IMG/VR virus record: IMGVR_UViG_2671181118_000006
Reading direction: 5' to 3' (one strand)
Source of the DNA: a virus
Taxonomy: Duplodnaviria; Heunggongvirae; Uroviricota; Caudoviricetes
DNA: 31,778 nt
The notes under the pieces are model-generated. The model saw only the letters and a program-made list of their open reading frames with translations, searched no databases and was not told the DNA's origin. This document shows, piece by piece, positions 1,958 through 25,407 of this stretch (the first letter of the stretch is position 1; every line of letters starts with the position of its first letter). The translations under genes were made by a program, and so were the position numbers.

Positions 1958-4405
1958 TTAACCGTCATGCATCATGCTGGCACGGGCGCGCGCACGTTTA
2001 TCCCGCTCATATTTTTCGAGCGCATCCTGTAACTGGCGGTCGAGCTGAGTCCCCGGCGCAGTACCGCCCGTCAGACTGATGTGATATTCGTTTTTACTCT
2101 GGTCCACATAAGAGCGGCCAGCCGGTGCCGTAACCGGCTGATAAGCCTGATAGCCTGCATAAGAGCTGGTCGCCGGAATATAACCACCGGTGCCATACGT
2201 GGCGGCATGAGTTCTGGCGGCGGTCTGGTCAAGTGTGTCTGACTCTTTGTTGATAACACCGAGTTTTTCCAGTACCCAGTCAATACCACTGCGCAGTTTG
2301 TTGAACGCATTAAGCGGCAGCATCAACGCGTCAGCCAGTGCCTGCCCGAACATGACGCCCGTGTCACGGCAACGGTTCAGGGTGTCCTGGGTGGCTTTAA
2401 CCGGGGCAATCAGGTTTTTAAACCACTGCCACGCGGCCTGTAACTTTTCGCCCAGCCAGTCAAACACCGGCTTAAGTGGCGTGAACAGTTCCCCCACCGG
2501 CGCAAATGCCGCTTTCAGCCCTTCCACCACACCGCCAAAGAATGCGCTGACAGGCTCCCAGTATTTACGGATAAGCAACGCCCCGGCGACAATGGCGGCC
2601 ACCACGGCCACAACCGGCCAGCTAATCGCTCCGATGGCGGTCATAACAGCACTGCCAACCGTCGTGAAGATTGCCCCCATTGCGCCTGCTGCCGCGATGA
2701 TGGCATTGATGCCGGTGATAACCGGCCAGGCTACGAGGCCAATGGCACCGATGACACCAATCAGTGCCAGTGCACCACCGACAATAAGTCCGATGGTTGA
2801 CGCCAGTGATTTGTTTTTCTGGATCCAGCCGTCGAGTTTTAACACATACTTTGTGGCCGTCTGCGTGAGCTTACGCAGTGCGCCTTCCTGCTGGTCAAAC
2901 AGGTCAGTCCCCACCGCCTCATAAGCGGACTGAAACTCTTTAAAGTCACCGCCTAGGTTGTCCTGCATGATATTTACCAGCTCGGCAGTCTTCCCGTCTG
3001 AGGCTTTAAACGCAGCGGTCAGTTTGTCCAGCTTTCCGGTTGAGGCGGCAGTCATCAGCACGGCGGCGGCTGAGCTGGCCTCCTCCCCGAAAATAGTTTT
3101 CATGTATTCAGCCTGCTGGGCAGTACCGAGCCGGTTTTTCTCAAAACTGGCCTGCATTTCTTTCAGAATGGTAAATATTGGCCGGGTGTTTCCCTTGCTG
3201 TCTGAGGTTTTCACGCCAAGCTCTTTGAGTGCATCCCATGCTTTTCCCGTCGGTGCCTGCAGGCGGCTTAACACGGCACGGCTTCCCGTCCCCGCCATTG
3301 AGCCTGTGATTTTTGCATCATGCAGCGCCCCGACCATTGCGGCGGTTTCTTCAATGCTGACACCGGCATTTTTTGCCACAGGTGCGGCATAGGTCAGCGC
3401 ATCGCTCATACCGTCAAAATCGGCGGCGGTTTTGTTCATCGTCATGGAGAGAACATCCCCGATATGAGCGACCTTATCGTTTGAAAGCTGAAAGGCGGAT
3501 TTCATCCCCATCAGCAGGGCGGCGTTTTCTTCCATCGTGCGGCGGTTCGCCAGCGCCATATTCAGCGTGACCGGCGTTGCCGCCTGAATGGCATCAACAT
3601 CCCCACCCGCTTTCGCAATAATAATCTGCGCACCGGCCGCATCATCCGCCGAGGCGGCGGTGTTGTCGCCGAGCTGGCGCGCCTGTTTGCGGAGCGCGGC
3701 CATTTCGGCGGAGTCTTTTGCCACTCCGAGCACAGCCTGTAATTCTGAGTTTTTCTGCGCAAACTCATAACCGGGCATCAGCAGCTTAACTCCGGCCATC
3801 GTTCCCGCCGCCGCAATCCCCACACCGGCAGCGCCCACTGAGGCCATATTTCCGGCCAGTTCCTTGCCGGCCTGATAACGCTGTTTGACTGCGTTAAGTT
3901 TTGCCTGTTGTGCACTGACACGCGCCAGTGCGTCGCGCTGACGGTTAAGCTGTGCGGTGGTTTCACTGATACGGTTTTTCAGCCCCTGCTCATCATGTGC
4001 AAGATTGCGGGTATTAATTCCCACAGCGGCCAGTTCCCGCTGCTGGCGCTTAACGGAATCCGTCAGGCGGTTATATTTCGCCTGTAAGTCCTCCGCCGCA
4101 CGCTTCGCGGATTCCAGCACTTTCGCCTGAGCACGTGTCGGACGTTCAGTGTTTTTAAACTGTGTGGCAAGGGCTTCGGCCTCCTGCCGTGCCTTTTCAA
4201 GTGCATGACCAGTCACGGCGAGCTGTGCGCTGGTCTTGCGAAATCCCTCAATACGGGATGCGTGACCGTTCAGCTCGCGCAGTGATTTTTGTGTTTCCCG
4301 GATATCCCCCGACAGCGACTTGCTCGCTGTGCGGATGGATTTAAACGGGCGGGATGCCTGGTCAACAGCCCTGAGCAATACCTGTAATTTTACATTGTTA
4401 CTCAT
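1958..4405 (-). CDS. T: tail tape measure protein
   Basis: 815 aa, Ala/Gly/Gln-rich coiled-coil composition with a central hydrophobic stretch, typical of tape measure proteins; position after E/E'. Confidence 0.9.
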   Translation of the reverse strand: MSNNVKLQVLLRAVDQASRPFKSIRTASKSLSGDIRETQKSLRELNGHASRIEGFRKTSAQLAVTGHALEKARQEAEALATQFKNTERPTRAQAKVLESAKRAAEDLQAKYNRLTDSVKRQQRELAAVGINTRNLAHDEQGLKNRISETTAQLNRQRDALARVSAQQAKLNAVKQRYQAGKELAGNMASVGAAGVGIAAAGTMAGVKLLMPGYEFAQKNSELQAVLGVAKDSAEMAALRKQARQLGDNTAASADDAAGAQIIIAKAGGDVDAIQAATPVTLNMALANRRTMEENAALLMGMKSAFQLSNDKVAHIGDVLSMTMNKTAADFDGMSDALTYAAPVAKNAGVSIEETAAMVGALHDAKITGSMAGTGSRAVLSRLQAPTGKAWDALKELGVKTSDSKGNTRPIFTILKEMQASFEKNRLGTAQQAEYMKTIFGEEASSAAAVLMTAASTGKLDKLTAAFKASDGKTAELVNIMQDNLGGDFKEFQSAYEAVGTDLFDQQEGALRKLTQTATKYVLKLDGWIQKNKSLASTIGLIVGGALALIGVIGAIGLVAWPVITGINAIIAAAGAMGAIFTTVGSAVMTAIGAISWPVVAVVAAIVAGALLIRKYWEPVSAFFGGVVEGLKAAFAPVGELFTPLKPVFDWLGEKLQAAWQWFKNLIAPVKATQDTLNRCRDTGVMFGQALADALMLPLNAFNKLRSGIDWVLEKLGVINKESDTLDQTAARTHAATYGTGGYIPATSSYAGYQAYQPVTAPAGRSYVDQSKNEYHISLTGGTAPGTQLDRQLQDALEKYERDKRARARASMMHDG

Positions 4406-4825
4406 TCGTGTTTCCGCTTCGCCGGAGCGCCTTTTCGCGCCATGTGATAAGTTCGGTCAGGCTCATGGGATACAGTTCTGATGGCGGCCAGTGAAATATC
4501 ACTGCCACATCCGCCATCAGGTCATCGACCGAGAGATTTTTCGGAAACGTTACTGCACCGAGTTCGGCGACAAAAAACCGACCACCTTACCGGCCAGCGC
4601 CACAAGGTCAGGCAGTTCCAGCGCGGCGACCTCCTGCTCGGTCAGCATCGGTGCCGTCATGCGCGGCAGCACTTTAATCAGTGCATCGACTTCGGAGTTT
4701 GCGACCGCAGCCAGACTGACACCGCGCAGCGTCCCGGCATTGGGTTTCATCAGCGTGACCTGTTCGATAACCTGCTCACCACGCTTGACCGGATTGTCCA
4801 GGGTAATCACATTTTCTTTGTTCAT
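4398..4825 (-). CDS. E+E': tail assembly chaperone E+E' (programmed -1 frameshift product)
   Basis: Slippery heptamer TTTTTTG on the minus strand at about 4571-4577. Reading in the -1 frame from there gives ...FFVAELGAVTFPKNLSVDDLMADVAVIFHWPPSELYPMSLTELITWREKALRRSGNTNE*, whose stop (4398-4400) overlaps the T start codon (AATGAGTAA). Total about 142 aa, as in P2 E+E'. Confidence 0.75.
4550..4825 (-). CDS. E: tail assembly chaperone E
   Basis: 91 aa, same length as P2 gpE; ends ...GFLSPNSVQ immediately after a TTTTTTG slippery run. Confidence 0.9.
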   Translation of the reverse strand: MNKENVITLDNPVKRGEQVIEQVTLMKPNAGTLRGVSLAAVANSEVDALIKVLPRMTAPMLTEQEVAALELPDLVALAGKVVGFLSPNSVQ

Positions 4826-4881: not shown

Positions 4882-5400
4882 TCACAGGCCGATATTGCGG
4901 CGGTGTTGCTCCAGCCGGTCGGCGCCGTTCACCTTCTCAATCATGTTGATGGTGTCGATTTCGACCAGCTCCTTACCGTCCATCGTCAGCCGGAAATAGG
5001 TGCAGACCACGGAAATTTTCGACTCGGTGTCTTCTCCCTGTTTACCCTCGCCGGTGTCGATTTCTTTCTGACGTCCACGCATGACCACCTCGACGGCTAC
5101 CGTTTCGCCGGTATCGTCGCGCTGGTAAGAGCCTGCAAAACGAATCGGCACAGCATCCACACCGGTTGCGGCGTAAAGCTCCCAGATAACCGAATCCGGG
5201 AAGCCCCCGAGCGACCACTCCATTGACAGCGCATCGTCATCAAGGCCGAGGTCTACCGGTGCGCTTCCGTTCATCCCCGCACCGCGATAGTTTTCGAGTT
5301 TACGGGTCAGTTTTGGCAGCGTGACGGACTTTGCAACGCCCTGATAGCTGTAGCCGTTCAGAAAGACGTTCATTAACTTGAGTTTGCGCGGCATTGCCAT
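4882..5400 (-). CDS. FII: tail tube protein FII
   Basis: 172 aa, same length as P2 gpFII; follows FI. Confidence 0.9.
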   Translation of the reverse strand: MAMPRKLKLMNVFLNGYSYQGVAKSVTLPKLTRKLENYRGAGMNGSAPVDLGLDDDALSMEWSLGGFPDSVIWELYAATGVDAVPIRFAGSYQRDDTGETVAVEVVMRGRQKEIDTGEGKQGEDTESKISVVCTYFRLTMDGKELVEIDTINMIEKVNGADRLEQHRRNIGL

Positions 5401-5412
5401 CGGTCAGGCTCC

Positions 5413-6603
5413 TTAATTGCTGTTAACCGAGGTGACCAGATTTGCCAGGTATTTATCGGTAATACGCTGGCGCAGGGTCAGGTTTTCAAGAGGAGGAACC
5501 GGGGTATAGTCGTAGTCGATATACAGTTTTCCGGCCTTAAGGGTTTCCGCATCGTTGGATTCTTCGCTGAACCAGCAGGTCGCATCCACGATATAGCCGT
5601 TTGTTTTCAGCTCACGAAATTTGGCATTGATGCCGTCAACGATGTCGCGAATCAGCGTTGCGGTGATGGGCTTGTCCACCGCCCACATGTGCGCCTCAGC
5701 CATCGTGTCGGCCAGCACCTGCGCGGTGCGGGTGTAGTTTTCAAAGAGGAACAGCGGGTCATCAGAGCAGGTACGGTTACCCCAGAATCGGAAACCGTCG
5801 CGGCGAATCAGCGTAGTGACGCCTGACTCGTTTAGCAGGTCAGCATCGGTGCCGGACTCCTGCAAATCCCAGAATACAGATGCGCTGATGCCGGTAACAC
5901 CGTTTACCCCGACGTTGGACAGCGTTTTATGCCATCCCTGCTCCTGGTCGATTTTAGCGCGCAGACCCAGCGCACGGGCGGTGGCATACGCGGTGGCGGT
6001 GGTACTGGTGACCGTATCCCATGCGAGGAAATCCGGCCAGATGACCATCAGCTCACGCTGGCTGAAATTCTGGCGGTAGGCTTTCACCTCGGAAATGGTT
6101 TTACAGCCCCATGCGCTGATATACCCGAAAGCGCGCAGCTTCTGACAGACGGATGCCAGTGCAACAGCCACCTCTTTGGTATCCAGTCCCGGCACACCGA
6201 GAATACGCGGTTTAACACCGGTTACCGACTCCGCCGCCAGCAGGGCTTTCAGTCCGGTGTACTGACCGTTTTCGTCAGTGGTGCCGATGATATTGGAAAC
6301 GGTCTGCGCGAGTTTCGTTTCTTCGTCGTCGCCGGTTCCGTCTTCCACGCGCACGACAACGGTGACCGGTTTTGACTGGTCAGCGATGGCCTGCAACGAT
6401 GCCGCCAGCGTGCCTTTTTTACCGGCCTTTGCAATCGCGCTCTGCACATTGGTGATCAGCACCGGTTTATTGACGGGGAAGGTTTCCGCATCCGCATCGC
6501 TGGCCGTGCAGACCATGCCAACAATGGCGGTGGATACGGTGGAAATGACGCGGGTGCCGTCGTTAATCTCCAGCACCTGCACGCCGTGATGATAGTCACT
6601 CAT
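5413..6603 (-). CDS. FI: contractile tail sheath protein FI
   Basis: 396 aa, same length as P2 gpFI; synteny. Confidence 0.9.
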   Translation of the reverse strand: MSDYHHGVQVLEINDGTRVISTVSTAIVGMVCTASDADAETFPVNKPVLITNVQSAIAKAGKKGTLAASLQAIADQSKPVTVVVRVEDGTGDDEETKLAQTVSNIIGTTDENGQYTGLKALLAAESVTGVKPRILGVPGLDTKEVAVALASVCQKLRAFGYISAWGCKTISEVKAYRQNFSQRELMVIWPDFLAWDTVTSTTATAYATARALGLRAKIDQEQGWHKTLSNVGVNGVTGISASVFWDLQESGTDADLLNESGVTTLIRRDGFRFWGNRTCSDDPLFLFENYTRTAQVLADTMAEAHMWAVDKPITATLIRDIVDGINAKFRELKTNGYIVDATCWFSEESNDAETLKAGKLYIDYDYTPVPPLENLTLRQRITDKYLANLVTSVNSN

Positions 6604-6662
6604 CCGTTTAACTCCGTGGTTAATGGGTGAGTGTTATTTTCAGTTGTGCCGGAGATGTCAGG

Positions 6663-7256
6663 CTATTTGTCCCGGTTGGTTAAGGGATGACACAATTTAT
6701 TCTTTGTCGCTGATGAGGGGAATTTTTTATAGAGCGTGGACAGGCCAATATCAAAAATCAGCGCCACACGTTGACGAGATTCCCCCGCAGCCAGCAACCG
6801 TCCGACCTGCTCCCACTCACTCGCGGTGAGTTTCGGACGTCTGCCACCAATACGACCTTTGGCTCTGGCCGCTTCCAGTCCGGCGCGTGTCCGCTCGACA
6901 ATGAGTTCTCGTTCCATTTCAGCCAGGGCACCCATCACATGGAAGAAAAAACGCCCCATCGGCGTGCTGGTATCAATAGCATCCGTCAGGCTGCGAAAAT
7001 TAATGCCGCGTTCGCGCAGTTCCTCAACCAGAATGACCAGATGCCGCATACTACGCCCCAGCCTGTCCAGCTTCCAGACAACCAGAGTGTCACCTTCCGA
7101 TAATGTTCTGAGCAGTTTTTTCAACCCCGGTCGGTCGGACTTCGTGCCGCTGATTTTATCCTCAAAAATCAGCTCACATCCTGCACACTCCAGCGCATTA
7201 CGCTGCAATTCCGTATTCTGGTCATTTGTTGATACGCGGACATAGCCAATAAGCAT
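6663..7256 (-). CDS. site-specific DNA invertase (serine recombinase, Gin/Hin/Cin/Pin family)
   Basis: 197 aa starting MLIGYVRVSTNDQNTELQ, with the catalytic Ser region, GDTLVVWKLDRLGRS, and a C-terminal HTH (IFDIGLSTLYKKF). Sits beside inverted-repeat crossover sites and an inverted tail-fibre cassette. Confidence 0.9.
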   Translation of the reverse strand: MLIGYVRVSTNDQNTELQRNALECAGCELIFEDKISGTKSDRPGLKKLLRTLSEGDTLVVWKLDRLGRSMRHLVILVEELRERGINFRSLTDAIDTSTPMGRFFFHVMGALAEMERELIVERTRAGLEAARAKGRIGGRRPKLTASEWEQVGRLLAAGESRQRVALIFDIGLSTLYKKFPSSATKNKLCHPLTNRDK

Positions 7257-7311
7257 GATGGATCCCCTGAATAAAAACCGGGGATGATGCCAGTTAGCCG
7301 TAATCTCTGCA

Positions 7312-7337
7312 TTTTCTTAAACGTTGGTTTGGGAGAA
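7312..7337. other. invertase crossover site, hix/gix/cix-like (invertase-proximal)
   Basis: TTTTCTTAAACGTTGGTTTGGGAGAA. Its reverse complement, TTCTCCCAAACC-AA-CGTTTAAGAAAA, follows the 12-2-12 layout I remember for hixL (TTCTTGAAAACCAAGGTTTTTGATAA). Inverted copy of the site at 9617-9642. Confidence 0.7.
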
Positions 7338-7781
7338 GGTGCTCCAGCTATTGGCGTTCCGTTCTTCTGGCCGTCCGCTGCAATGCCAAATACTGTAATC
7401 GATAGCTGGTCCAGTATGGTGTTTTTGAAGTTCAACGGGGCGAAATTTTCTGCCTCTGATTACCCTGTGCTGGCAAAAGTGTTTCCTTCGCTGGTATTAC
7501 CTGAAGCCCGCGGTGATTTCATTCGTATCTGGGATGATGGGCGAGGGGCGGACAGTGGGCGAGCATTATTAAGCTGGCAGGCAGCAACATCTTTATCGCA
7601 ATTTGGCGGTAATTATCCAGAAGGGTCCGGCCATGCGATTGCTGATTACGATGGAATATCAGCACACCAGCCAGGTTTCTCTCGATTTCAGTACACCAGT
7701 AACTCAGTAGGAGATGGTGTTAATTTTATTGCCGTCAGACCACGTAACATTGCATTTAACTTTCTGGTGAGGGCTAAATAA
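7326..7781 (+). CDS. alternative tail-fibre C-terminal segment (silent cassette; would fuse to the H N-terminus after inversion)
   Basis: The open frame runs through the crossover site (..VGLGEGAPAIG..), in the same frame as the GLG codons at the H crossover. There is no independent RBS; the stop at 7779-7781 overlaps the ATG of the next gene. Confidence 0.65.
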   Translation, partial: GLGEGAPAIGVPFFWPSAAMPNTVIDSWSSMVFLKFNGAKFSASDYPVLAKVFPSLVLPEARGDFIRIWDDGRGADSGRALLSWQAATSLSQFGGNYPEGSGHAIADYDGISAHQPGFSRFQYTSNSVGDGVNFIAVRPRNIAFNFLVRAK

Positions 7782-8374
7782 TGAAACCTGTTTTTGATGA
7801 AAATGGACTGGCTACAGTGCCGGGTGATATGCGTTGTTTTTATTATGATGCAGTAACGTATGAATATACGGGCTGGTCTGATGAATATATTAATACTGGT
7901 GTAAGTATGCCCGCCTGTTCCACTGGTATTGACCCTGGCGAAAACATTCCGGGAAAAGTGGCTGTATTTACAGGTAAGGGATGGAGCCATGAAGAGGACC
8001 ATCGCAATGAGACTGTTTACTCAATCGAAAATGGCGCAGCTGTTACAGTGGATTATATCGGTGCCATCAAAAACGGTTATGTCACGCTTTCACCGTTAAC
8101 GCCATATGATAAATGGGATGGTGAGAAATGGGTGACAGATACTGAGGCACAACACGGTGCCGCAGTAGAAGCGGCAGAAGCACAGCGCCAGTCACTGATT
8201 GATGCAGCAATGGCTTCCATTAGTCTGATTCAGCTGAAATTACAGGCCGGGCGGAAACTGACGCAGGCAGAAACAACCCGGCTTAACGCTGTGCTGGATT
8301 ACATTGACGCGGTGACGGCAACAGATAGCAGCACCGCGCCGGATGTCATCTGGCCTGAACTGCCGGAGGCGTAG
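7781..8374 (+). CDS. alternative tail fibre assembly protein (U'-like)
   Basis: 197 aa; its C-terminus (NAVLDYIDAVTATDSSTAPDVIWPELPEA) is paralogous to the C-terminus of the expressed assembly protein (NAWLDYLDALEMVDTSGAPDIEWPTPP). Confidence 0.8.
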   Translation: MKPVFDENGLATVPGDMRCFYYDAVTYEYTGWSDEYINTGVSMPACSTGIDPGENIPGKVAVFTGKGWSHEEDHRNETVYSIENGAAVTVDYIGAIKNGYVTLSPLTPYDKWDGEKWVTDTEAQHGAAVEAAEAQRQSLIDAAMASISLIQLKLQAGRKLTQAETTRLNAVLDYIDAVTATDSSTAPDVIWPELPEA

Positions 8375-8789
8375 GCCATTCAATATCTGGCGCACCGGAA
8401 GTATCGACCATTTCCAGTGCGTCCAGGTAATCCAGCCACGCGTTATACTGTACCTTTTCGGCGTCTTTCAGCCGTCCCATTGCAGCTTTTCCCGGCCATT
8501 GCTTGCTGTTCATGTACTCGTTAGCCTGGTCGATTAGCAGTTGTTTTTGTGCTTCAGTTGCTGCAACAAGTTCATCGTGCGTTGGCGGCGGAATATCACC
8601 CCAGGCAGGAAAACCATCTTCACCAGCAATGCGGATTTTCCCTTTCGGTGGTTCGCCTGAATACTCAATAAACAGTTCTTCATCAACCTCCTTAGCATTG
8701 TCAAAATTCATTCCATTTGATTCATAAATTTCCTTCATAGCTATCGGATAGAAAGCATTTGTAGATACATCATAAAAATATTTATTCAT
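8346..8789 (-). CDS. G: tail fibre assembly protein
   Basis: Probable start is the ATG at 8787-8789 (MNKYFYD...), preceded by a GGGAGA RBS; the track ORF extends to 8816. Lies convergent with, and overlapping, the alternative assembly gene. Confidence 0.8.
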   Translation of the reverse strand: MNKYFYDVSTNAFYPIAMKEIYESNGMNFDNAKEVDEELFIEYSGEPPKGKIRIAGEDGFPAWGDIPPPTHDELVAATEAQKQLLIDQANEYMNSKQWPGKAAMGRLKDAEKVQYNAWLDYLDALEMVDTSGAPDIEWPTPPAVQAR

Positions 8790-8794
8790 TCTAA

Positions 8795-10456
8795 TTATCT
8801 CCCGATTGCAATCCATCGAGCGTAAATAACGGCTGGTGATGATGTTGAATTTAATAATTTGAACTGAGTATTACTGATAGGTTGAGCTGCAAAGCTATAA
8901 GGTGCACCTGAAGCGCCAGCGTTATCATATGAAGCAACAAGCTGAACTGTACTGTAATTTGTAAAAGGTATGTGGAAATTGATTGTCTGCGGATCGCCAA
9001 TTTGACCAGAGACTGCAATACCCCACTGGATAATAGTCCCACCCGGTAAAGATGCCCAGCCGGTACCACTCGTAAAACTAGACATATCCGGTATTTGTCC
9101 AGCACCTGTACCCACATTTTTTGTTGCTGCTGTACCCAGACTGAGGCTGGAAATAGATTGAGAAACAAACTGACGGGTGGCAAGCTGTATGATGTTATTC
9201 GATGCCGAATGCCTCATGTATGGGTCTTGTTGATTGTTGGAAATAAACCCAGCCACATCACACGCATCACGTTGGATAGCGTTTATATCAGCGGGAGTGG
9301 GTTTAAATCCTGTGTGGTACAACTTATACCAGTCAGAAAATGCAGTCTGACTCGTTTTTATCCTCACACTAAAGTCAGGAATGGAACCGAGAGACGCACC
9401 GCAGATTTGCCACCCGGTTGAACCTGAGTTAGCAAATGAAATACCACCAGCCCACTGCCCAGGATAAGGACCGATATTATCTGCAGGGGCAAAATAATCA
9501 AAGCGACTGACGTCCAACGCCGCCATAGTTCCGCTTACCTGGTCTGCCTTTATCCCAAGCCCCCACCCGCCATTTAATGCAATTTTACCCGTTTTATCTG
9601 TGAAGGATGATTGCAGTGTTCCCAAACCAAGGTATGCGAGAAGACCGGCAACATCCTTCCCACTCAAATGAGTCAGCGTCTCATCCAGTGGCTGCTTACC
9701 TGACAGCGCATTGTTAATGGTGGTACTGAATTTCGGGTCATTGTTAATGGCTGCGGCAATTTCTTTCAGTGTGTCCAGCGTGTCAGGGGCACCGTTAATC
9801 AGAGCGGTAATAGCGGCCTGTACAAACGCAGTGGTCGCAATCCGCGTGGTGTTATTTCCTGCGGCAGGCGTCGGCGCTTTTGGTTCTCCGGTAAATGTCG
9901 GATTATGTTTCTGTGCATACTGGGTATGAGGATCCTGTGCGGCAATGTGGTTTCTCATCTGGTCATCCACATACAGCTTTAATTCCAGGACTTTATCATC
10001 CACGTATTTACGGGTCGCCAGTACCACCGACGGGTCGATTTTCAGCGTGATGGCTTCGGTATTCGTGACAACCAGAATCATGCGGATAGTCTGGGTACGA
10101 CCACTGCCTTCCTGCAACTGCGGTTTGTACGTTTCCGGGCAGTTCGCCACCGCAATGAGTACGCCTTCATCATCATAAAGCCCAATCTCACGGATCCAGA
10201 ATCCGCCCTCGTTCTCAGGGATGATTTGCTCCGCAATAATCTGGCTCTGGTTGTTCGGGTCAACACTCAGAAGATTCAGCGGCGCGATGCGTTTCTGGTT
10301 AATCAGTTTTGTCTGTGCCGGGTCTGGTGTCGGCAAGACACCATTCGCATCACCAACGGCCATTTGCGTCAGATTCAGCTTACTGCCGAGCATCGTCGCG
10401 TTAGCCAGCCGTGCTGCGCCCTGATTAGTCAGAATGGCGTAGTATTTCACTGTCAT
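8795..10456 (-). CDS. H: tail fibre protein H (constant N-terminus plus currently expressed variable C-terminus)
   Basis: 553 aa; N-terminus MTVKYYAILTNQGAARLA...MAVGDANG resembles the P2 H / Mu S N-terminus; crossover site at about codon 275. Confidence 0.9.
   Translation of the reverse strand: MTVKYYAILTNQGAARLANATMLGSKLNLTQMAVGDANGVLPTPDPAQTKLINQKRIAPLNLLSVDPNNQSQIIAEQIIPENEGGFWIREIGLYDDEGVLIAVANCPETYKPQLQEGSGRTQTIRMILVVTNTEAITLKIDPSVVLATRKYVDDKVLELKLYVDDQMRNHIAAQDPHTQYAQKHNPTFTGEPKAPTPAAGNNTTRIATTAFVQAAITALINGAPDTLDTLKEIAAAINNDPKFSTTINNALSGKQPLDETLTHLSGKDVAGLLAYLGLGTLQSSFTDKTGKIALNGGWGLGIKADQVSGTMAALDVSRFDYFAPADNIGPYPGQWAGGISFANSGSTGWQICGASLGSIPDFSVRIKTSQTAFSDWYKLYHTGFKPTPADINAIQRDACDVAGFISNNQQDPYMRHSASNNIIQLATRQFVSQSISSLSLGTAATKNVGTGAGQIPDMSSFTSGTGWASLPGGTIIQWGIAVSGQIGDPQTINFHIPFTNYSTVQLVASYDNAGASGAPYSFAAQPISNTQFKLLNSTSSPAVIYARWIAIGR
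9617..9642. other. invertase crossover site, hix/gix/cix-like (inside tail fibre gene H)
   Basis: TGTTCCCAAACC-AA-GGTATGCGAGAA, inverted relative to the 7312-7337 site and sharing the (T)TCCCAAACC half-site. Lies in frame inside H at about codon 275, encoding ...LAYLGLGT... Confidence 0.7.
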
Positions 10457-11064
10457 GCGTTTACTCTCAGGTTATCAATTAAATGAATGGCCGAGGCCGG
10501 GAAATAATCCCCTCCGACAATAATGGCCTCCGGGGTGTAGGGATAAACCGTCAGGGCGTCACCGTGATAGCATCCCGCACCGGCAAAAATGTTGCCGGTT
10601 GTACTTAAACTGATAGCCAGTCCCGTCAGATGGCGGCTCGCCGGTTTTGCATCAGCAACGAGGCGCTCCAGCTCCTGATACATTTCTTCGGTAATACCCT
10701 GCTCAAGCACGCCAACAACGATACGGAACGTCCCCGGCTCCTCGTTGAGCTGCCACCACTCCCTTACCTCAATCAGATAGCCGAGCGGCTCCACCACACG
10801 CCGGATTGCGCCTATAGTGCCCTTATGGCAGTGAATGAAATACGCATCGCGGATAACAGCGCGTTTTGTCGCTTCCGGCCATTTATCATCCCAGCGGTCA
10901 ACCGAAAATGACCACGCCAGCCACGGCAGCAGATTTGCCGGGCAGGTGTCCGGGTTCCACAGCTCACGAATACTGACCGGCGTTTTTTCAATTTCCGCAC
11001 AGGCTTTTGCGGCGGCAACTTCAAGCGGTGATGAGCCGGTCGGCAGCAGTCGCGAATCACTCAT
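10453..11064 (-). CDS. I: baseplate assembly protein I
   Basis: 203 aa; synteny between H and J; stop/start overlap with H. Confidence 0.85.
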   Translation of the reverse strand: MSDSRLLPTGSSPLEVAAAKACAEIEKTPVSIRELWNPDTCPANLLPWLAWSFSVDRWDDKWPEATKRAVIRDAYFIHCHKGTIGAIRRVVEPLGYLIEVREWWQLNEEPGTFRIVVGVLEQGITEEMYQELERLVADAKPASRHLTGLAISLSTTGNIFAGAGCYHGDALTVYPYTPEAIIVGGDYFPASAIHLIDNLRVNA

Positions 11065-11965
11065 CCGAGCCTCCGGTCACGACGCTGTATTCGGTACAGA
11101 AAGACGCCTGCGTATTGTTGAGCACGATGTCGGCCAGTGGTGCAGCCAGTTCGACACGCTGCACGCCTTCAACATGCAAAGCGGCATAAATGGCAGACAG
11201 ACGGATGTCGCGCCCCAGCCGGTGCTGTGCCGTGATGTACGCTTCCAGTTTTTTCACGGCGGCAGCACGGATGGGTTCGCTTTCGGGGCCAGGGTAAAGG
11301 TAAAGCGTGGCGTTTATCTGGTATTCAACGATGGCGGCAGACTGCACGGTCACGCGGTCGGCCACTGGCCTGACGTCCTCGCCATTAAGGGCGTTACGCA
11401 CCACGGCCAGCAGGTCTTCGGATGCAACACCGTTATTTTCACGTGACAGCACAGAGATGGTGACGCAGGCCGGAGACGGACTGGTGACAGAGATATCTGC
11501 GACGCGCCCGTCGGCACTGCGACCATGATACTGATAGGCTCCCACCGACCCGGCGACGCTTAAACCTTCAAACGCCTGCTGAATACGCAGACGATAATCG
11601 GTGTCAGACTCCATCACTGCCGGTGTCGGCGGGATGGTCGAATCATCTGCCGGGGTGATAGTCAGGCGCGTGGTGTTGTAATTGGCACCAATCACATCAA
11701 GGTCATTACCGGCGGCACAGGCCAGCATCACCGCCCGTGCGGCCTCATTCACACGCTGACGCCAGATAAGCTCACGATAAGCATTTTCCTCCAGCAGCTT
11801 GACGAGAGGCTCGGATTCCAGCGTCAGGGTACGGGCGACCGCCTCCTGCTGGTCTTCCGGGTAAAGGGAAATCAGTGTCGCCTTGCGTTCGGCGAGAATG
11901 GTTTCAAAGTCCAGCTCCTCGACCACATCCGGTGCGGGTAGCTGGTTCAGGTCGATAATCGGCAT
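11057..11965 (-). CDS. J: baseplate protein J
   Basis: 302 aa, same length as P2 gpJ. Confidence 0.9.
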   Translation of the reverse strand: MPIIDLNQLPAPDVVEELDFETILAERKATLISLYPEDQQEAVARTLTLESEPLVKLLEENAYRELIWRQRVNEAARAVMLACAAGNDLDVIGANYNTTRLTITPADDSTIPPTPAVMESDTDYRLRIQQAFEGLSVAGSVGAYQYHGRSADGRVADISVTSPSPACVTISVLSRENNGVASEDLLAVVRNALNGEDVRPVADRVTVQSAAIVEYQINATLYLYPGPESEPIRAAAVKKLEAYITAQHRLGRDIRLSAIYAALHVEGVQRVELAAPLADIVLNNTQASFCTEYSVVTGGSDE

Positions 11966-22388: not shown

Positions 22389-23375
22389 TTATAATAATTT
22401 GTCCAGCCTAGCTGAAACAATACCTAGAACAACTGTTGAAACTATATTTACCACCACTCTTAAAATACTCTTCTTTCGCTTCTTACTATATTCATCATAC
22501 AACCTCTCATCACCCTTATTTAATACAATGTACGATGCTGGAGTATAACCATCAATTAATCTCTCTAGGCCTTCACCTAAATGCTCCGCTAACAATGGGA
22601 TAATAGAAAACGCACCAAGAAAGAGCATTAAAAATTTTACTAACCTTTCTTTATCACCAATATCAATATATTCACCAACATTGTACAGTGCATAACTTAA
22701 AATCAATATAGAAAAAGAAAACCGCATAATCAGTGGGATTAAATACGATATCCTTTGAGCTTGCTGTATCAATGGTATTTTGTTTGTAACTCTTTGACAT
22801 CCTTCAACCCATTCTTTAAATGCTTCGATAAAACCTCTAGCCACTACATAATCAGCATATTCAACAACTATTTCTGCTGAACTGGTGAGCATGAATGCAA
22901 CAAAACGCCCCCTAATGAAAGGTGGTGCATCTTCTTCCATTTCTTTCTGCATAGCAATTCTTGATGCTAATTTAACAGTAACTTCATAGTGGTTAGGTAA
23001 TGATGCCCCTGTCGATAAAATTGCAAAGTTATATTTTAAAATTACACTAATTGTTGGACTACTTCCCGCACTACTCGACATTGCAAACTTATCAAAAGAG
23101 GTAAACTGTTCCTTTCTATCTTTTGAATGTAAAATAGTTACCGTTTCATTTTTCGATATAATATTATGAACATCACACAATTGATTTATTTTTTGATGAA
23201 CGCTTCTTATCTCATCGATATTTATAAGTAAATTCTCAGAGGTTCTCTGCCTTATTGTTTCTGTTGTTCCCGTTATATGTTGATAAATTTGCTGATAAAT
23301 ACGAATGCTAGTATTAATATCCCGAGAAGCAGGTAACCCACTATTAATCCCATTATTTTTTTTCATTTGACTCAT
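22389..23375 (-). CDS. hypothetical protein with a soluble N-terminal domain and three C-terminal transmembrane helices (cargo; candidate phage-defence or exclusion effector)
   Basis: Roughly 328-codon ORF in AT-rich DNA, where long ORFs are unlikely by chance. ATG candidates at 23373-23375 and 23364-23366; the track start at 23378 is a TTG. Hydrophobic segments ISYLIPLIMRFSFSILILSYALY, LVKFLMLFLGAFSIIPLLA and ILRVVVNIVSTVVLGIVSA. No family recognised. Confidence 0.7.
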   Translation of the reverse strand: MSQMKKNNGINSGLPASRDINTSIRIYQQIYQHITGTTETIRQRTSENLLINIDEIRSVHQKINQLCDVHNIISKNETVTILHSKDRKEQFTSFDKFAMSSSAGSSPTISVILKYNFAILSTGASLPNHYEVTVKLASRIAMQKEMEEDAPPFIRGRFVAFMLTSSAEIVVEYADYVVARGFIEAFKEWVEGCQRVTNKIPLIQQAQRISYLIPLIMRFSFSILILSYALYNVGEYIDIGDKERLVKFLMLFLGAFSIIPLLAEHLGEGLERLIDGYTPASYIVLNKGDERLYDEYSKKRKKSILRVVVNIVSTVVLGIVSARLDKLL

Positions 23376-23637
23376 CAATTATAACACTCATTTTATTTCC
23401 TATAAAAACTTAACCAGCAAATTAAACAAAAAGAACACAAGGTTATTATTTAGCGTGCAACAACACGATTGCACAACCAAATGCCACGTGTACGAATCTA
23501 ACCATTCTCTTATATTAAATCAAGTCAATACAACCTAATAGACACATTTTTTTATCGCAGTTATACACTTGGTTAACAATATGCGGATAGTTACTCAAAT
23601 CAAATTACATATATGACAAAATGAACAATTGCGCGCA

Positions 23638-23656: not shown

Positions 23657-23862
23657 CGCCCGCTTCATGGGGCGGTTTTAATGCAGTTGCATGACCACTC
23701 AACTAGCGCGCCAGTCCTGATGTCGCCAGGCAGTTATTGTTCTCTGACTTGCGTGCGCTTCGATGCAGAGTAATGCACTTCCTGAATTGCTCGCATTCGC
23801 ATCGTTATCATGATAGAAAACAGGTAGTTATTTGTGCGCAACTTAAGAAGAAATCACTAATT

Positions 23863-25407
23863 ATGAAAAAGATTTATGAATTAACTACTGGTAGAGCGCT
23901 TAAGTATTTTCTGCAGCATGATTCATACACTACTCTGGAGCTACCCAGTTATGTCGATTTTTCTTCCTTGCTTGAAGAAATCAACTCCGCGATAGATGAA
24001 GGTAAAATCAACTTCCAACCTGACTCCAAGTCATTGATGGGGAAGAATATAAATTACGAGGTTTTAGTCAGCAAAGATGGCTTATATAGCTGGCGACGAA
24101 TAACACTAATTAATCCTCTGTACTACGTGTATTTTTGTAAACTTATTACATCCTCTTCCAACTGGAATGCTATAAGGAATAAATTTAGAGAGTTTGAGTC
24201 TAATGATCTTTTTTTATGCTCAAGTATCCCAGTGAGCAAAAAGAACACCTCAAACGTAGCTGCATCTGTTTTAAACTGGTGGGAAGATTTTGAACAAAAA
24301 AGTCTTTCATTGGCTCTTGAGTATGAGTTCATGTTCAGCACAGATATTTCAAACTTCTACCCTTCTATTTACACTCATAGCTTTGAATGGGTATTCATCT
24401 CAAAAGAAGAGGCCAAAAAGAAAGAAAATAACAATAACCCAGGACGATTGATTGACACTCATATCCAGATGATGATGAGTAATCAGACAAACGGAATACC
24501 ATTGGGTAGTACGTTGATGGATACATTTGCCGAATTAATTTTAGGCGAAATTGATTTACAGCTAAGAAAAAAAACCGAAGAGCAAAAAATAACGGATTAC
24601 AAAGTAGTTCGCTACAGAGATGATTATCGAATATTTTCAAGCAGTAAAGATGATTTGGACAAAATCTCAAAGTGTTTGGTTGAGGTCTTAGGTGAGTTTG
24701 GGCTTGATTTAAACTCAAGAAAAACAGAACTACATGACGACATCATTCTTCACTCCCTTAAATCAGCAAAAAAAGAATATATTATAGAAGGGTCGTTCAA
24801 CTCCCTACAGAAAATGTTGTATGCAATATATTTATTTTCTTTAAAACATCAAAACTCCAAAATTACAGTCAGATATTTAAATGATTTCTTGCGGAAATTA
24901 TTTAGGAAGAAAAAGATCACAAATAGTGGGCATCAACTAGATGCAATGCTTGGAATTATTTCAAGCATCATGGCTAAAAACCCAACCACCTACCCAGTGG
25001 GAATGGCTATTTTCGCAAAACTCTTGACCTTCCTTTATGACGACGATGAACTCAAATTTGGCAAGTTACAACAACTTCATTGTAAACTAGGTAAACAACC
25101 AAATACTGAAATGTTAGATATTTGGTTTCAACGAGTTCAAGGGAAGATACACACACAATGGGAAGGCGATTACAAAACAGCCCTATGTCAACGCATAAAT
25201 GATGAACTCAAGGAAAAAAAAACATTTACCATTGATGGCCTGTGGGATGTAGAGTGGATTCCGGGTTCAGCCAAAAATAAAAACAAACAGAAAATACTAT
25301 CAATTTTGAAAAAAACAAAAATTGTGGATTTAGATGCATTCGAAGAAATGGATACTGATATTACACCAGAAGAAGTGAACTTATTCGACAAGGAACACAG
25401 CGCTTAA
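23863..25407 (+). CDS. reverse transcriptase, Abi-P2-like (UG/Abi class) defence-associated RT
   Basis: 514 aa from the ATG at 23863 (the track ORF begins further upstream at 23737). RT motifs readable in the translation: FSTDISNFYPSIYTHSF (motif A-like), NGIPLGSTLMDTFAELILGEID (motif B-like), VVRYRDDYRIFSS (Y-x-DD catalytic motif C), GLDLNSRKTEL (motif D/E-like). The C-terminal 200 aa or so is helical and unassigned. AT-rich; occupies the tin/old slot between cos and A. Confidence 0.85.
   Translation: MKKIYELTTGRALKYFLQHDSYTTLELPSYVDFSSLLEEINSAIDEGKINFQPDSKSLMGKNINYEVLVSKDGLYSWRRITLINPLYYVYFCKLITSSSNWNAIRNKFREFESNDLFLCSSIPVSKKNTSNVAASVLNWWEDFEQKSLSLALEYEFMFSTDISNFYPSIYTHSFEWVFISKEEAKKKENNNNPGRLIDTHIQMMMSNQTNGIPLGSTLMDTFAELILGEIDLQLRKKTEEQKITDYKVVRYRDDYRIFSSSKDDLDKISKCLVEVLGEFGLDLNSRKTELHDDIILHSLKSAKKEYIIEGSFNSLQKMLYAIYLFSLKHQNSKITVRYLNDFLRKLFRKKKITNSGHQLDAMLGIISSIMAKNPTTYPVGMAIFAKLLTFLYDDDELKFGKLQQLHCKLGKQPNTEMLDIWFQRVQGKIHTQWEGDYKTALCQRINDELKEKKTFTIDGLWDVEWIPGSAKNKNKQKILSILKKTKIVDLDAFEEMDTDITPEEVNLFDKEHSA

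Follow-up and report, generated by a model that had tools for sequence, protein, structure and literature searches.

Inversion of tail-fibre cassettes by the invertases Gin, Cin and Pin is textbook knowledge. We analysed a 31,778-nucleotide (nt) stretch of DNA, referred to here as the window, from the Caudoviricetes record IMGVR_UViG_2671181118_000006 of IMG/VR, in which a gene for a DNA invertase lies next to the tail fibre gene H of a P2-like prophage. A preliminary description, made from the letters of the sequence alone, had regarded this locus as a Mu G-like invertible tail-fibre switch, in which an invertase acting at one site within H and another beside its own gene would exchange the C-terminal part of the fibre together with its assembly protein. 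The genes and features of the locus, followed by those of its surroundings, are listed in Table 1.

The DNA invertase

The protein encoded by the invertase gene combines an N-terminal catalytic domain (Pfam Resolvase, E = 2.9e-52) with a C-terminal helix-turn-helix (HTH_7, E = 5e-13), which is the architecture of the small serine recombinases. The nucleophile, Ser9, is kept in a VST motif. At the amino acid (aa) level the protein was 81% identical to PinE of the element e14, 75% identical to Cin and 74% identical to Gin, and the Gin structures 3UJ3 and 4M6F aligned to its residues 1-182 (E = 4e-94). The proposed membership in the Gin/Hin/Cin family was thus borne out. With NCBIfam, neither the invertase nor the fibre proteins could be assigned to a specific equivalog, all matches being below cutoff. 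The ATG of the gene lies 68 bp from the nearest crossover core, as compared to 67 bp in Mu and e14. A scan for sigma-70 promoters found none that was convincing for the invertase (4 matches, with 6.2 expected by chance).

Table 1. Features of the invertible locus and of its surroundings in the window (strand "." denotes a feature without orientation)
Feature	Position	Strand	Basis or remark
DNA invertase gene, 197 aa, small serine recombinase of the Pin/Gin/Cin/Hin group	6663..7256	-	Pfam, identity
Invertase-proximal crossover site, TTTTCTTAAACG TT GGTTTGGGAGAA	7312-7337, core 7324-7325	+	Matrix 24.1 bits, top in window
H-internal crossover site, TTCTCGCATACC TT GGTTTGGGAACA	9617-9642, core 9629-9630	-	Matrix 21.7 bits, second in window
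Invertible segment, 2305 bp between cores	7325..9629	.	In silico inversion, breakpoints
H, complete, 553 aa	8795-10456	-	Open reading frame (ORF) map
Constant N-terminal part of H, codons 1-276	9629..10456	-	Pfam Phage_tail_fib, E = 1.2e-62
Current variable C-terminal part of H, 277 aa, Gp53-like_C tip	8795..9628	-	Pfam PF21882, E = 1.7e-11
Current assembly protein gene (G-equivalent), 147 aa	8346..8789, ORF to 8816	-	Pfam Caudo_TAP, E = 1.2e-30
Silent alternative C-terminal cassette Sv', 151 codons	7326..7781	+	In frame on in silico inversion
Silent second assembly gene, 197 aa, cognate to Sv'	7781..8374	+	Pfam Caudo_TAP, E = 1.5e-26
Predicted recombinational enhancer	7167..7238	-	Invertase gene nt 19-90, same interval as P1 cin enhancer annotation
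P2-type late promoter pF and activator (Ogr) site	6604..6700	-	Alignment with annotated P2 pF region
T gene	1958-4405	-	ORF map
E gene	4550-4825	-	ORF map
FII gene	4882-5400	-	ORF map
FI sheath gene	5413-6603	-	ORF map
I gene	10453-11064	-	ORF map
J gene	11057-11965	-	ORF map
556-aa reverse transcriptase matching the AbiP2 defence reverse transcriptase	23737-25407	+	PADLOC, E = 9e-160; Pfam RVT_1
329-aa ORF adjoining the AbiP2-like reverse transcriptase	22389-23378	-	No match in Pfam or PADLOC

Two crossover sites in inverted orientation

We searched for crossover sites with a half-site matrix that was built solely from annotated cix, gix and e14 half-sites, namely those of the P1 cixL and cixR crossover points, the Mu G-segment boundaries and the e14 site. 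In a scan of the window (~32,000 positions) the two sites of Table 1 ranked first and second, and the next best position scored 7.0 bits. The maximum over 300 shuffled windows was 18.2 bits, and both sites were above it. These ranks and the shuffle control therefore indicate that the sites are real, that there are exactly two of them and that they belong with the known sites. Both have a 12-2-12 layout with a TT core, and they lie in inverted orientation. Failure to align with known hix, gix or cix sites had been named beforehand as a point that would speak against a switch; instead, the window sites aligned, base for base, with cix (...TAAACC TT GGTTTAAGAGAA), gix (...AAAACC TC GGTTTACAGGAA) and the e14 site (CTCTCGAAAACC TT GGTTTGGGAGAA). 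The invertase-proximal site was identical to the e14 site at 25 of 26 positions, and at all 26 to the invertase-proximal site of a P2-like locus in enteropathogenic Escherichia coli (EPEC) E2348/69. The two window sites are imperfect inverted repeats: they agree with each other at 19 of 26 positions, among them the core and 10 of the 12 inner half-site bases. Thus, the pair of inverted 26-bp sites in the preliminary description exists, although its members are not perfect repeats.

A shufflon, which has at least three sites, was considered and rejected, since no third site above 7.0 bits was present anywhere in the window. Separately, we observed that the H gene of P2 holds a lone gix-like site (TTATCGAATATC TC GGTTTACAGGAA, 21.7 bits) at positions 1358-1383 of L016, at about codon 378. 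Its inner half and core are those of Mu gix, and P2 is without an invertase. The site has the appearance of a remnant from a former invertible cassette.

Inversion in silico keeps the reading frame of H

The TT core of the H-internal site occupies nt 827-828 of H, in codon 276, in agreement with an earlier placement at about codon 275, and the GLG motif forms residues 277-279. The constant part of H upstream of this point was 98.6% identical in amino acid sequence to H of phage pro483, and homology to P2 H stopped at the crossover site. When positions 7325-9629 were flipped in silico, the result was an uninterrupted 427-aa protein, H', in which the frame was kept through L276-GLG and residues 1-276 of H were followed by GLGEGAPAIGVPFFWPS...VRAK. 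As had been predicted, GLG keeps the frame in both orientations. The swap of variable C-termini was likewise as described, with lengths of 277 and 151 aa in place of the 280 and 152 aa given before. The mechanical ORF that contains Sv' (7284-7781, plus strand) has no N-terminal domain of its own.

Each orientation gives a C-terminal tip together with its own assembly protein. Both small ORFs that had been proposed to be exchanged with the tips carry Caudo_TAP domains, and the two genes are oppositely oriented. The current assembly gene starts at ATG 8789 and is annotated as 147 aa in L017 and L018. The two genes are convergent, with a 29-bp overlap on opposite strands (8346-8374), as are tfaP and tfaE of e14. 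An inverted repeat in this region (8284-8310 and 8419-8445) arises because the assembly proteins have homologous C-termini.

Both orientations occur in public genomes

Evidence on orientation was drawn from the same sites and cassettes in other genomes. Collinearity with related prophages broke exactly at the sites, at 7338-7340 and 9620-9621, and in E. coli EC1, MB22 and CP058063 the interval from 7321 to about 8700 was inverted relative to both flanks. As a probe for the flipped state we used a synthetic 600-bp junction, in which the constant part of H was joined to Sv'. We found this junction as one uninterrupted match in 53 complete E. coli genomes, the best at 99.3%, and the junction present in the window, with the invertase side joined to Sv', in 230. 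The 427-aa H' was 100% identical over its full length to the public proteins P0003 and P0005, and dozens more public proteins were 95-99% identical to it. P0003 and P0005 are encoded in P2-like tail operons and are followed by the 197-aa assembly protein, which in L012 comes directly after H' and is itself followed by the invertase.

The current tip module (8690-9625) is rare, being present in 4 of 5426 complete E. coli genomes, and it had no match in the phage collection even at low stringency. In the UPEC132 prophage the module is fused to H. N50 and CUPF06 carry the same prophage with the module in the silent position beside the invertase, and their segment and flanks were 99.6-99.96% identical to those of UPEC132. 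UPEC132 and N50 thus form an isomer pair, 99.8-99.96% identical save for the flipped segment. The sites of UPEC132 are TTTTCATAAACG TT GGTTTAGGAGAA and TTCTCACATACC TT GGTTTGGGAACA, and those of N50 are TTCTCACATACC TT GGTTTAGGAGAA and TTTTCATAAACG TT GGTTTGGGAACA; the half-sites have been swapped reciprocally at TT, as expected from cleavage at the core. Similarly, L012 to L014 carry TTCTCGCATACC TT GGTTTGGGAGAA, which is the recombinant predicted from the two sites of the window. A finding of only one orientation in deep reads had been put forward as grounds for abandoning the switch; comparison with public genomes answers this in part, and there both orientations were found at these sites, with half-sites exchanged at the core.

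Coexisting orientations were previously measured in clonal cultures of EPEC E2348/69, at two P2-like loci and at e14 (Goldberg et al. 2014). The endpoints reported for one of the P2-like loci, 2977580-2979467 (Goldberg et al. 2014, Table S1), fall in the genome record on the cores of two sites that were found with our matrix. The invertase-proximal one of these is the EPEC site that equals 7312-7337 of the window at all 26 positions.

We also observed that RefSeq labels silent cassettes as pseudogenes that are "incomplete, missing N-terminus" (L002, 2321-2782; L003 and L004, 4344-5627), and that in two genomes it splits a fused H' into two pseudogene fragments. Such pseudogene calls are an artefact that annotation produces systematically at invertible fibre genes.

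The 5' end of the invertase gene

The motif KNNYRNNWNNYRNNM, the Hübner-Arber consensus for Fis, was matched at nt 23-37 and 71-85 of the invertase gene (7220-7234 and 7172-7186 in the window), with 48 bp from centre to centre. The invertase gene of the window, cin, gin and pinE all match it at identical gene positions. In the P1 record, the cin enhancer is annotated at nt 19-90 of the gene. These matches are suggestive, and the 5' end of the window gene is consistent with a Fis-bound enhancer, a search for which had been recommended in the preliminary description.

Mosaic origin of the segment

The two cassettes differ in their relatives. The left cassette (7321 to about 8700) was 91-95% identical to common pro483-like and EC1-like prophages. 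The right cassette (8093-9633) was 98-99% identical to its counterpart in a P2-like lineage with a backbone that shares only 65-69% identity with that of the window, and it also matched an e14/Mu-like element (L008). The tip module was 98-100% identical in the divergent P2-like lineage and in the e14/Mu-like element, where it lies in an stfP context (L005 to L008). The near-identity of this module across unrelated prophages indicates a recent transfer of the cassette between them. A central block of ~600 bp, 8093-8698, is common to both of these otherwise unrelated cassette types and contains the 3' ends at which the assembly genes converge; it seems to be the joint where cassettes are exchanged. 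The G+C content inside the segment (7200-9600 in the window) was 38-49%, as compared to 53-59% in the flanking tail genes and backbone, which is consistent with a horizontally exchanged cassette. Thus, the segment is a mosaic that reflects cassette exchange between P2-like and e14/Mu-like elements by way of the conserved central block. Exchange through such a block has long been known.

A probable two-state tail-fibre switch and its alternatives

We conclude from the sequence that the locus is, very probably, a functional two-site, two-state inversion switch of the Pin/Gin type for the tail fibre. Sequence and comparison together establish the identity of the invertase, the pair of sites and the frame across the crossover, and they show that both isomers exist at precisely these sites in public genomes. 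By the Gin/Hin/Cin paradigm, the invertase would bind the two inverted 26-bp sites as dimers, and an enhancer in the 5' end of its gene, bound by Fis, would aid assembly of the synapse. The enzyme would then cleave both sites at the central TT, its subunits would rotate, and religation would leave the 2305-bp segment flipped. As the sequence shows, the late V-operon transcript in the current orientation encodes H(1-276) with the 277-aa Gp53-like tip and then the 147-aa assembly protein; once the segment is flipped, this transcript encodes H(1-276) with the 151-aa StfE-like tip and then the 197-aa TfaE-like assembly protein. A population of lysogens would be expected to release virions with two receptor specificities. 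Dependence on Fis, a certain rate of flipping in this host and a difference in host range would all be anticipated by analogy with the family.

Several observations weigh against this conclusion. The flipped isomer of the exact cassette pair of the window was not found among public genomes. In prophages other than this one, each of the two cassettes did occur in either position. Of the contexts of P0003 and P0005, the silent cassette in L012 differs from that of the window, and the contig of L014 ends inside the segment. The exact H, which the assemblies GCA_001284565.1 and GCA_001283785.1 carry, occurs on four contigs, all of them necessarily in the orientation of the window. At 7 of 26 positions the H-side site is unlike the invertase-side site, a divergence that might make flipping slower. 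Finally, the matches to the Fis consensus fall in highly conserved codons and are no independent proof of an enhancer; the enhancer is therefore rated as suggestive rather than proven, since coding constraint confounds the agreement with the position of the P1 enhancer.

Some of these points would fit a fossil or locked switch, in which the architecture is intact and a diverged H-side half-site or poor expression of the invertase prevents meaningful flipping, so that the prophage has effectively one tail fibre. The mere 19 of 26 positions shared by the sites, the poorer fit of the H-side outer half to known half-sites (21.7 vs 24.1 bits), the single orientation of the four contigs and the strong bias of some EPEC P2-like loci (90-93% forward) all favour this possibility. 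However, the invertase ORF is intact and retains Ser9, and the cores are identical. Moreover, L012 to L014 have the outer half-site TTCTCGCATACC next to the other inner half-site, which means that this outer half-site has undergone recombination in nature, and in UPEC132 and N50, where the H-side site (TTCTCACATACC) is almost identical, the pair differs by the flip at an identity of at least 99.8%. We therefore consider a locked switch unlikely. Still less credible is an origin of both arrangements by homologous recombination or cassette exchange between prophages in place of inversion by the invertase, for which we see hardly any chance. Horizontal exchange is clear from the high identity of the right cassette despite the divergent backbone, from the matches of the left cassette to other prophages and from the central block that both share. 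It accounts for the mosaic, but not for the flip: the breakpoints lie on a 2-bp core with reciprocal exchange of half-sites, the flanks of UPEC132 and N50 are 99.96% identical with no sign of imported DNA, and measurements in clonal cultures have shown flipping at sites of this kind.

A further question is whether the main selected role of the system is a benefit to the host, through a chimeric fibre that blocks other phages or through an invertase that acts in trans on other invertible segments of the host. The published precedent comes from e14, the closest relative of the cassettes, where inversion of the P segment by PinQ is reported to yield the chimera StfE2, which blocks adsorption of T2. 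In addition, invertases of this family cross-react, and the invertase-proximal site is nearly or fully identical between elements, as described above for e14 and EPEC. On the other hand, the prophage looks complete, with intact late genes, and H, as a gene of a late operon, should not be expressed in a resting lysogen. The sequence itself is silent on such a role, which could coexist with host-range switching, and we judge it improbable as the main one. We give equally little weight to the related ideas that the overlap with pF couples invertase expression, or occupancy of pF, to the late tail genes, or that the flipped fibre blocks adsorption of other phages. The layout and the one precedent of PinQ and StfE2 are their basis, and they could apply here; if the coupling were true, the choice of orientation and tail synthesis would be linked by regulation.

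If the locus is a two-state switch, as we favour, the prophage is predicted to release particles with two receptor specificities, which is relevant to host-range typing and to the use of phages or tailocins. It would also explain three recurring artefacts of annotation: silent cassettes often bear the label of a pseudogene or "hypothetical protein", the length of the fibre gene differs (553 vs 427 aa) between otherwise identical prophages, and assemblies may break or disagree at the invertible segment. Beyond correct annotation, the importance of the locus is small.

The P2-like backbone and placement of the block

The minus strand of the window corresponds to the late tail region of P2, and the remainder looks like a complete P2-like prophage, from the integrase to tail gene D, with its late genes intact. 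Phage_GPA, Phage_GPD and integrase were found among its proteins with Pfam. The P2 gene order together with these hallmark proteins places the prophage among the P2-like phages (Peduovirus), and the nearest phage record is Peduovirus pro483. The block of invertase and cassette is flanked by the G-equivalent gene and FI. P2 has fun(Z) in the corresponding interval, from G to pF; therefore, the invertase and second cassette fill the Z/fun slot, as the preliminary description had stated.

The other boundary of the inserted block is pF, a region near-identical to its P2 counterpart, which the last ~13 invertase codons overlap. Homology to P2 resumed within these codons, at the Ogr-activator site of pF; thus, the 13-aa C-terminal tail by which the protein exceeds PinE is encoded by P2 promoter DNA. 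The end of the invertase ORF (6663-6700, minus strand) crosses the conserved Ogr site and stops at a TAG within ...GGGACAAATAGCCTGAC..., 59 bp ahead of the FI start. We detected no terminator in the stretch from the invertase gene to FI. A terminator-like hairpin with a T-run, a weak match to the consensus, lies at 7276-7295 (minus strand), between the invertase-proximal site and the start of the invertase gene, and it may end the late V-operon transcript once this has passed the invertible segment.

Elsewhere in the window, the position of the P2 old/tin hotspot, between the portal gene Q and the replication gene A, holds the 556-aa reverse transcriptase of Table 1. The 329-aa ORF that adjoins it had no match in Pfam or PADLOC.

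Relation to known inversion systems

P2 has the same gene order as the window, J-I-H-G-[slot]-FI-FII-E-T-U-D, and its H is homologous up to the crossover point. It differs in having fun(Z) in the slot, without an invertase or a second cassette. The G segment of Mu with Gin and the C segment of P1 with Cin belong to the same mechanism class: the invertases are 74-75% identical to that of the window, the architecture of the 26-bp sites is alike, the predicted enhancer lies at the corresponding place in the 5' part of the gene, and an alternative S C-terminus is switched together with a U-type assembly protein. The Mu invertase also reads away from the segment and starts at a similar distance (67 bp) from the core. 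However, the gix core is TC, in contrast to TT in the window, and the variable cassettes of the window had no detectable similarity to Sv or U of Mu or P1. In P1, unlike the window, cin reads towards the segment and cixL overlaps the 3' end of cin; the repeats in the constant region of P1 S resemble only residues 184-266 of H.

The homology of the invertase, the sites and the cassettes indicates, therefore, that the closest known system is the P segment of e14 with Pin, and not Mu G. We rejected Mu G as the closest relative because invertase identity, site identity and cassette homology all favour e14, and the term "Mu-G-like" holds for the mechanism class but not for the nearest kin. In e14, the genes have the same order and orientation (stfP/ycfK-tfaP / tfaE-stfE / pinE), the invertase reads away from the segment with its ATG 67-68 bp from the core in both systems, and both cores are TT. 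The whole segment is homologous to the e14 P segment in its proteins. Sv' was 40% identical in amino acid sequence to StfE and its assembly protein 62% identical to TfaE; the current assembly protein was 54% identical to TfaP, and the current tip 35% identical to StfP. The differences are that e14 is defective and carries another baseplate set, whereas the window is a complete-looking P2-like prophage; that the constant part in the window is a P2-type H (Phage_tail_fib); that the current tip of the window, 277 aa and Gp53-like, is longer; and that the window invertase has the 13-aa C-terminal extension from P2 pF DNA.

Placement of such a switch in a P2 backbone, to which the preliminary description had attached moderate novelty, has clear precedents, and that assessment was overstated. 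Fels-2 (Salmonella LT2 and LT7), the P2-like prophages of EPEC E2348/69 and pro483 all have an invertase and a second cassette between G and FI. The announcement of the LT7 genome notes that Fels-2 carries fin beside an invertible fibre gene, and a 2024 survey states that the Z/fun hotspot often encodes a DNA invertase with inversion of adjacent genes. The pro483 record, which was 94-99% identical at the nucleotide level over the invertase gene, the constant H part and a portion of the segment, already annotates a "DNA invertase" and two pairs of tail-fibre and assembly genes. Many RefSeq prophages are annotated in the same way, with a "DNA invertase" or "recombinase family protein" and two fibre/assembly pairs. 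In EPEC, one locus (L020) is a three-site shufflon, in contrast to the two sites of the window. The invertible segments of other P2-like prophages differ from that of the window in their pair of cassettes, and none of the complete E. coli genomes or phage records matched the window over 80% or more of 6500-10500. The kind of system is thus already known, and what is particular to this prophage is only the pairing of a rare Gp53-like tip with a common StfE-like tip.

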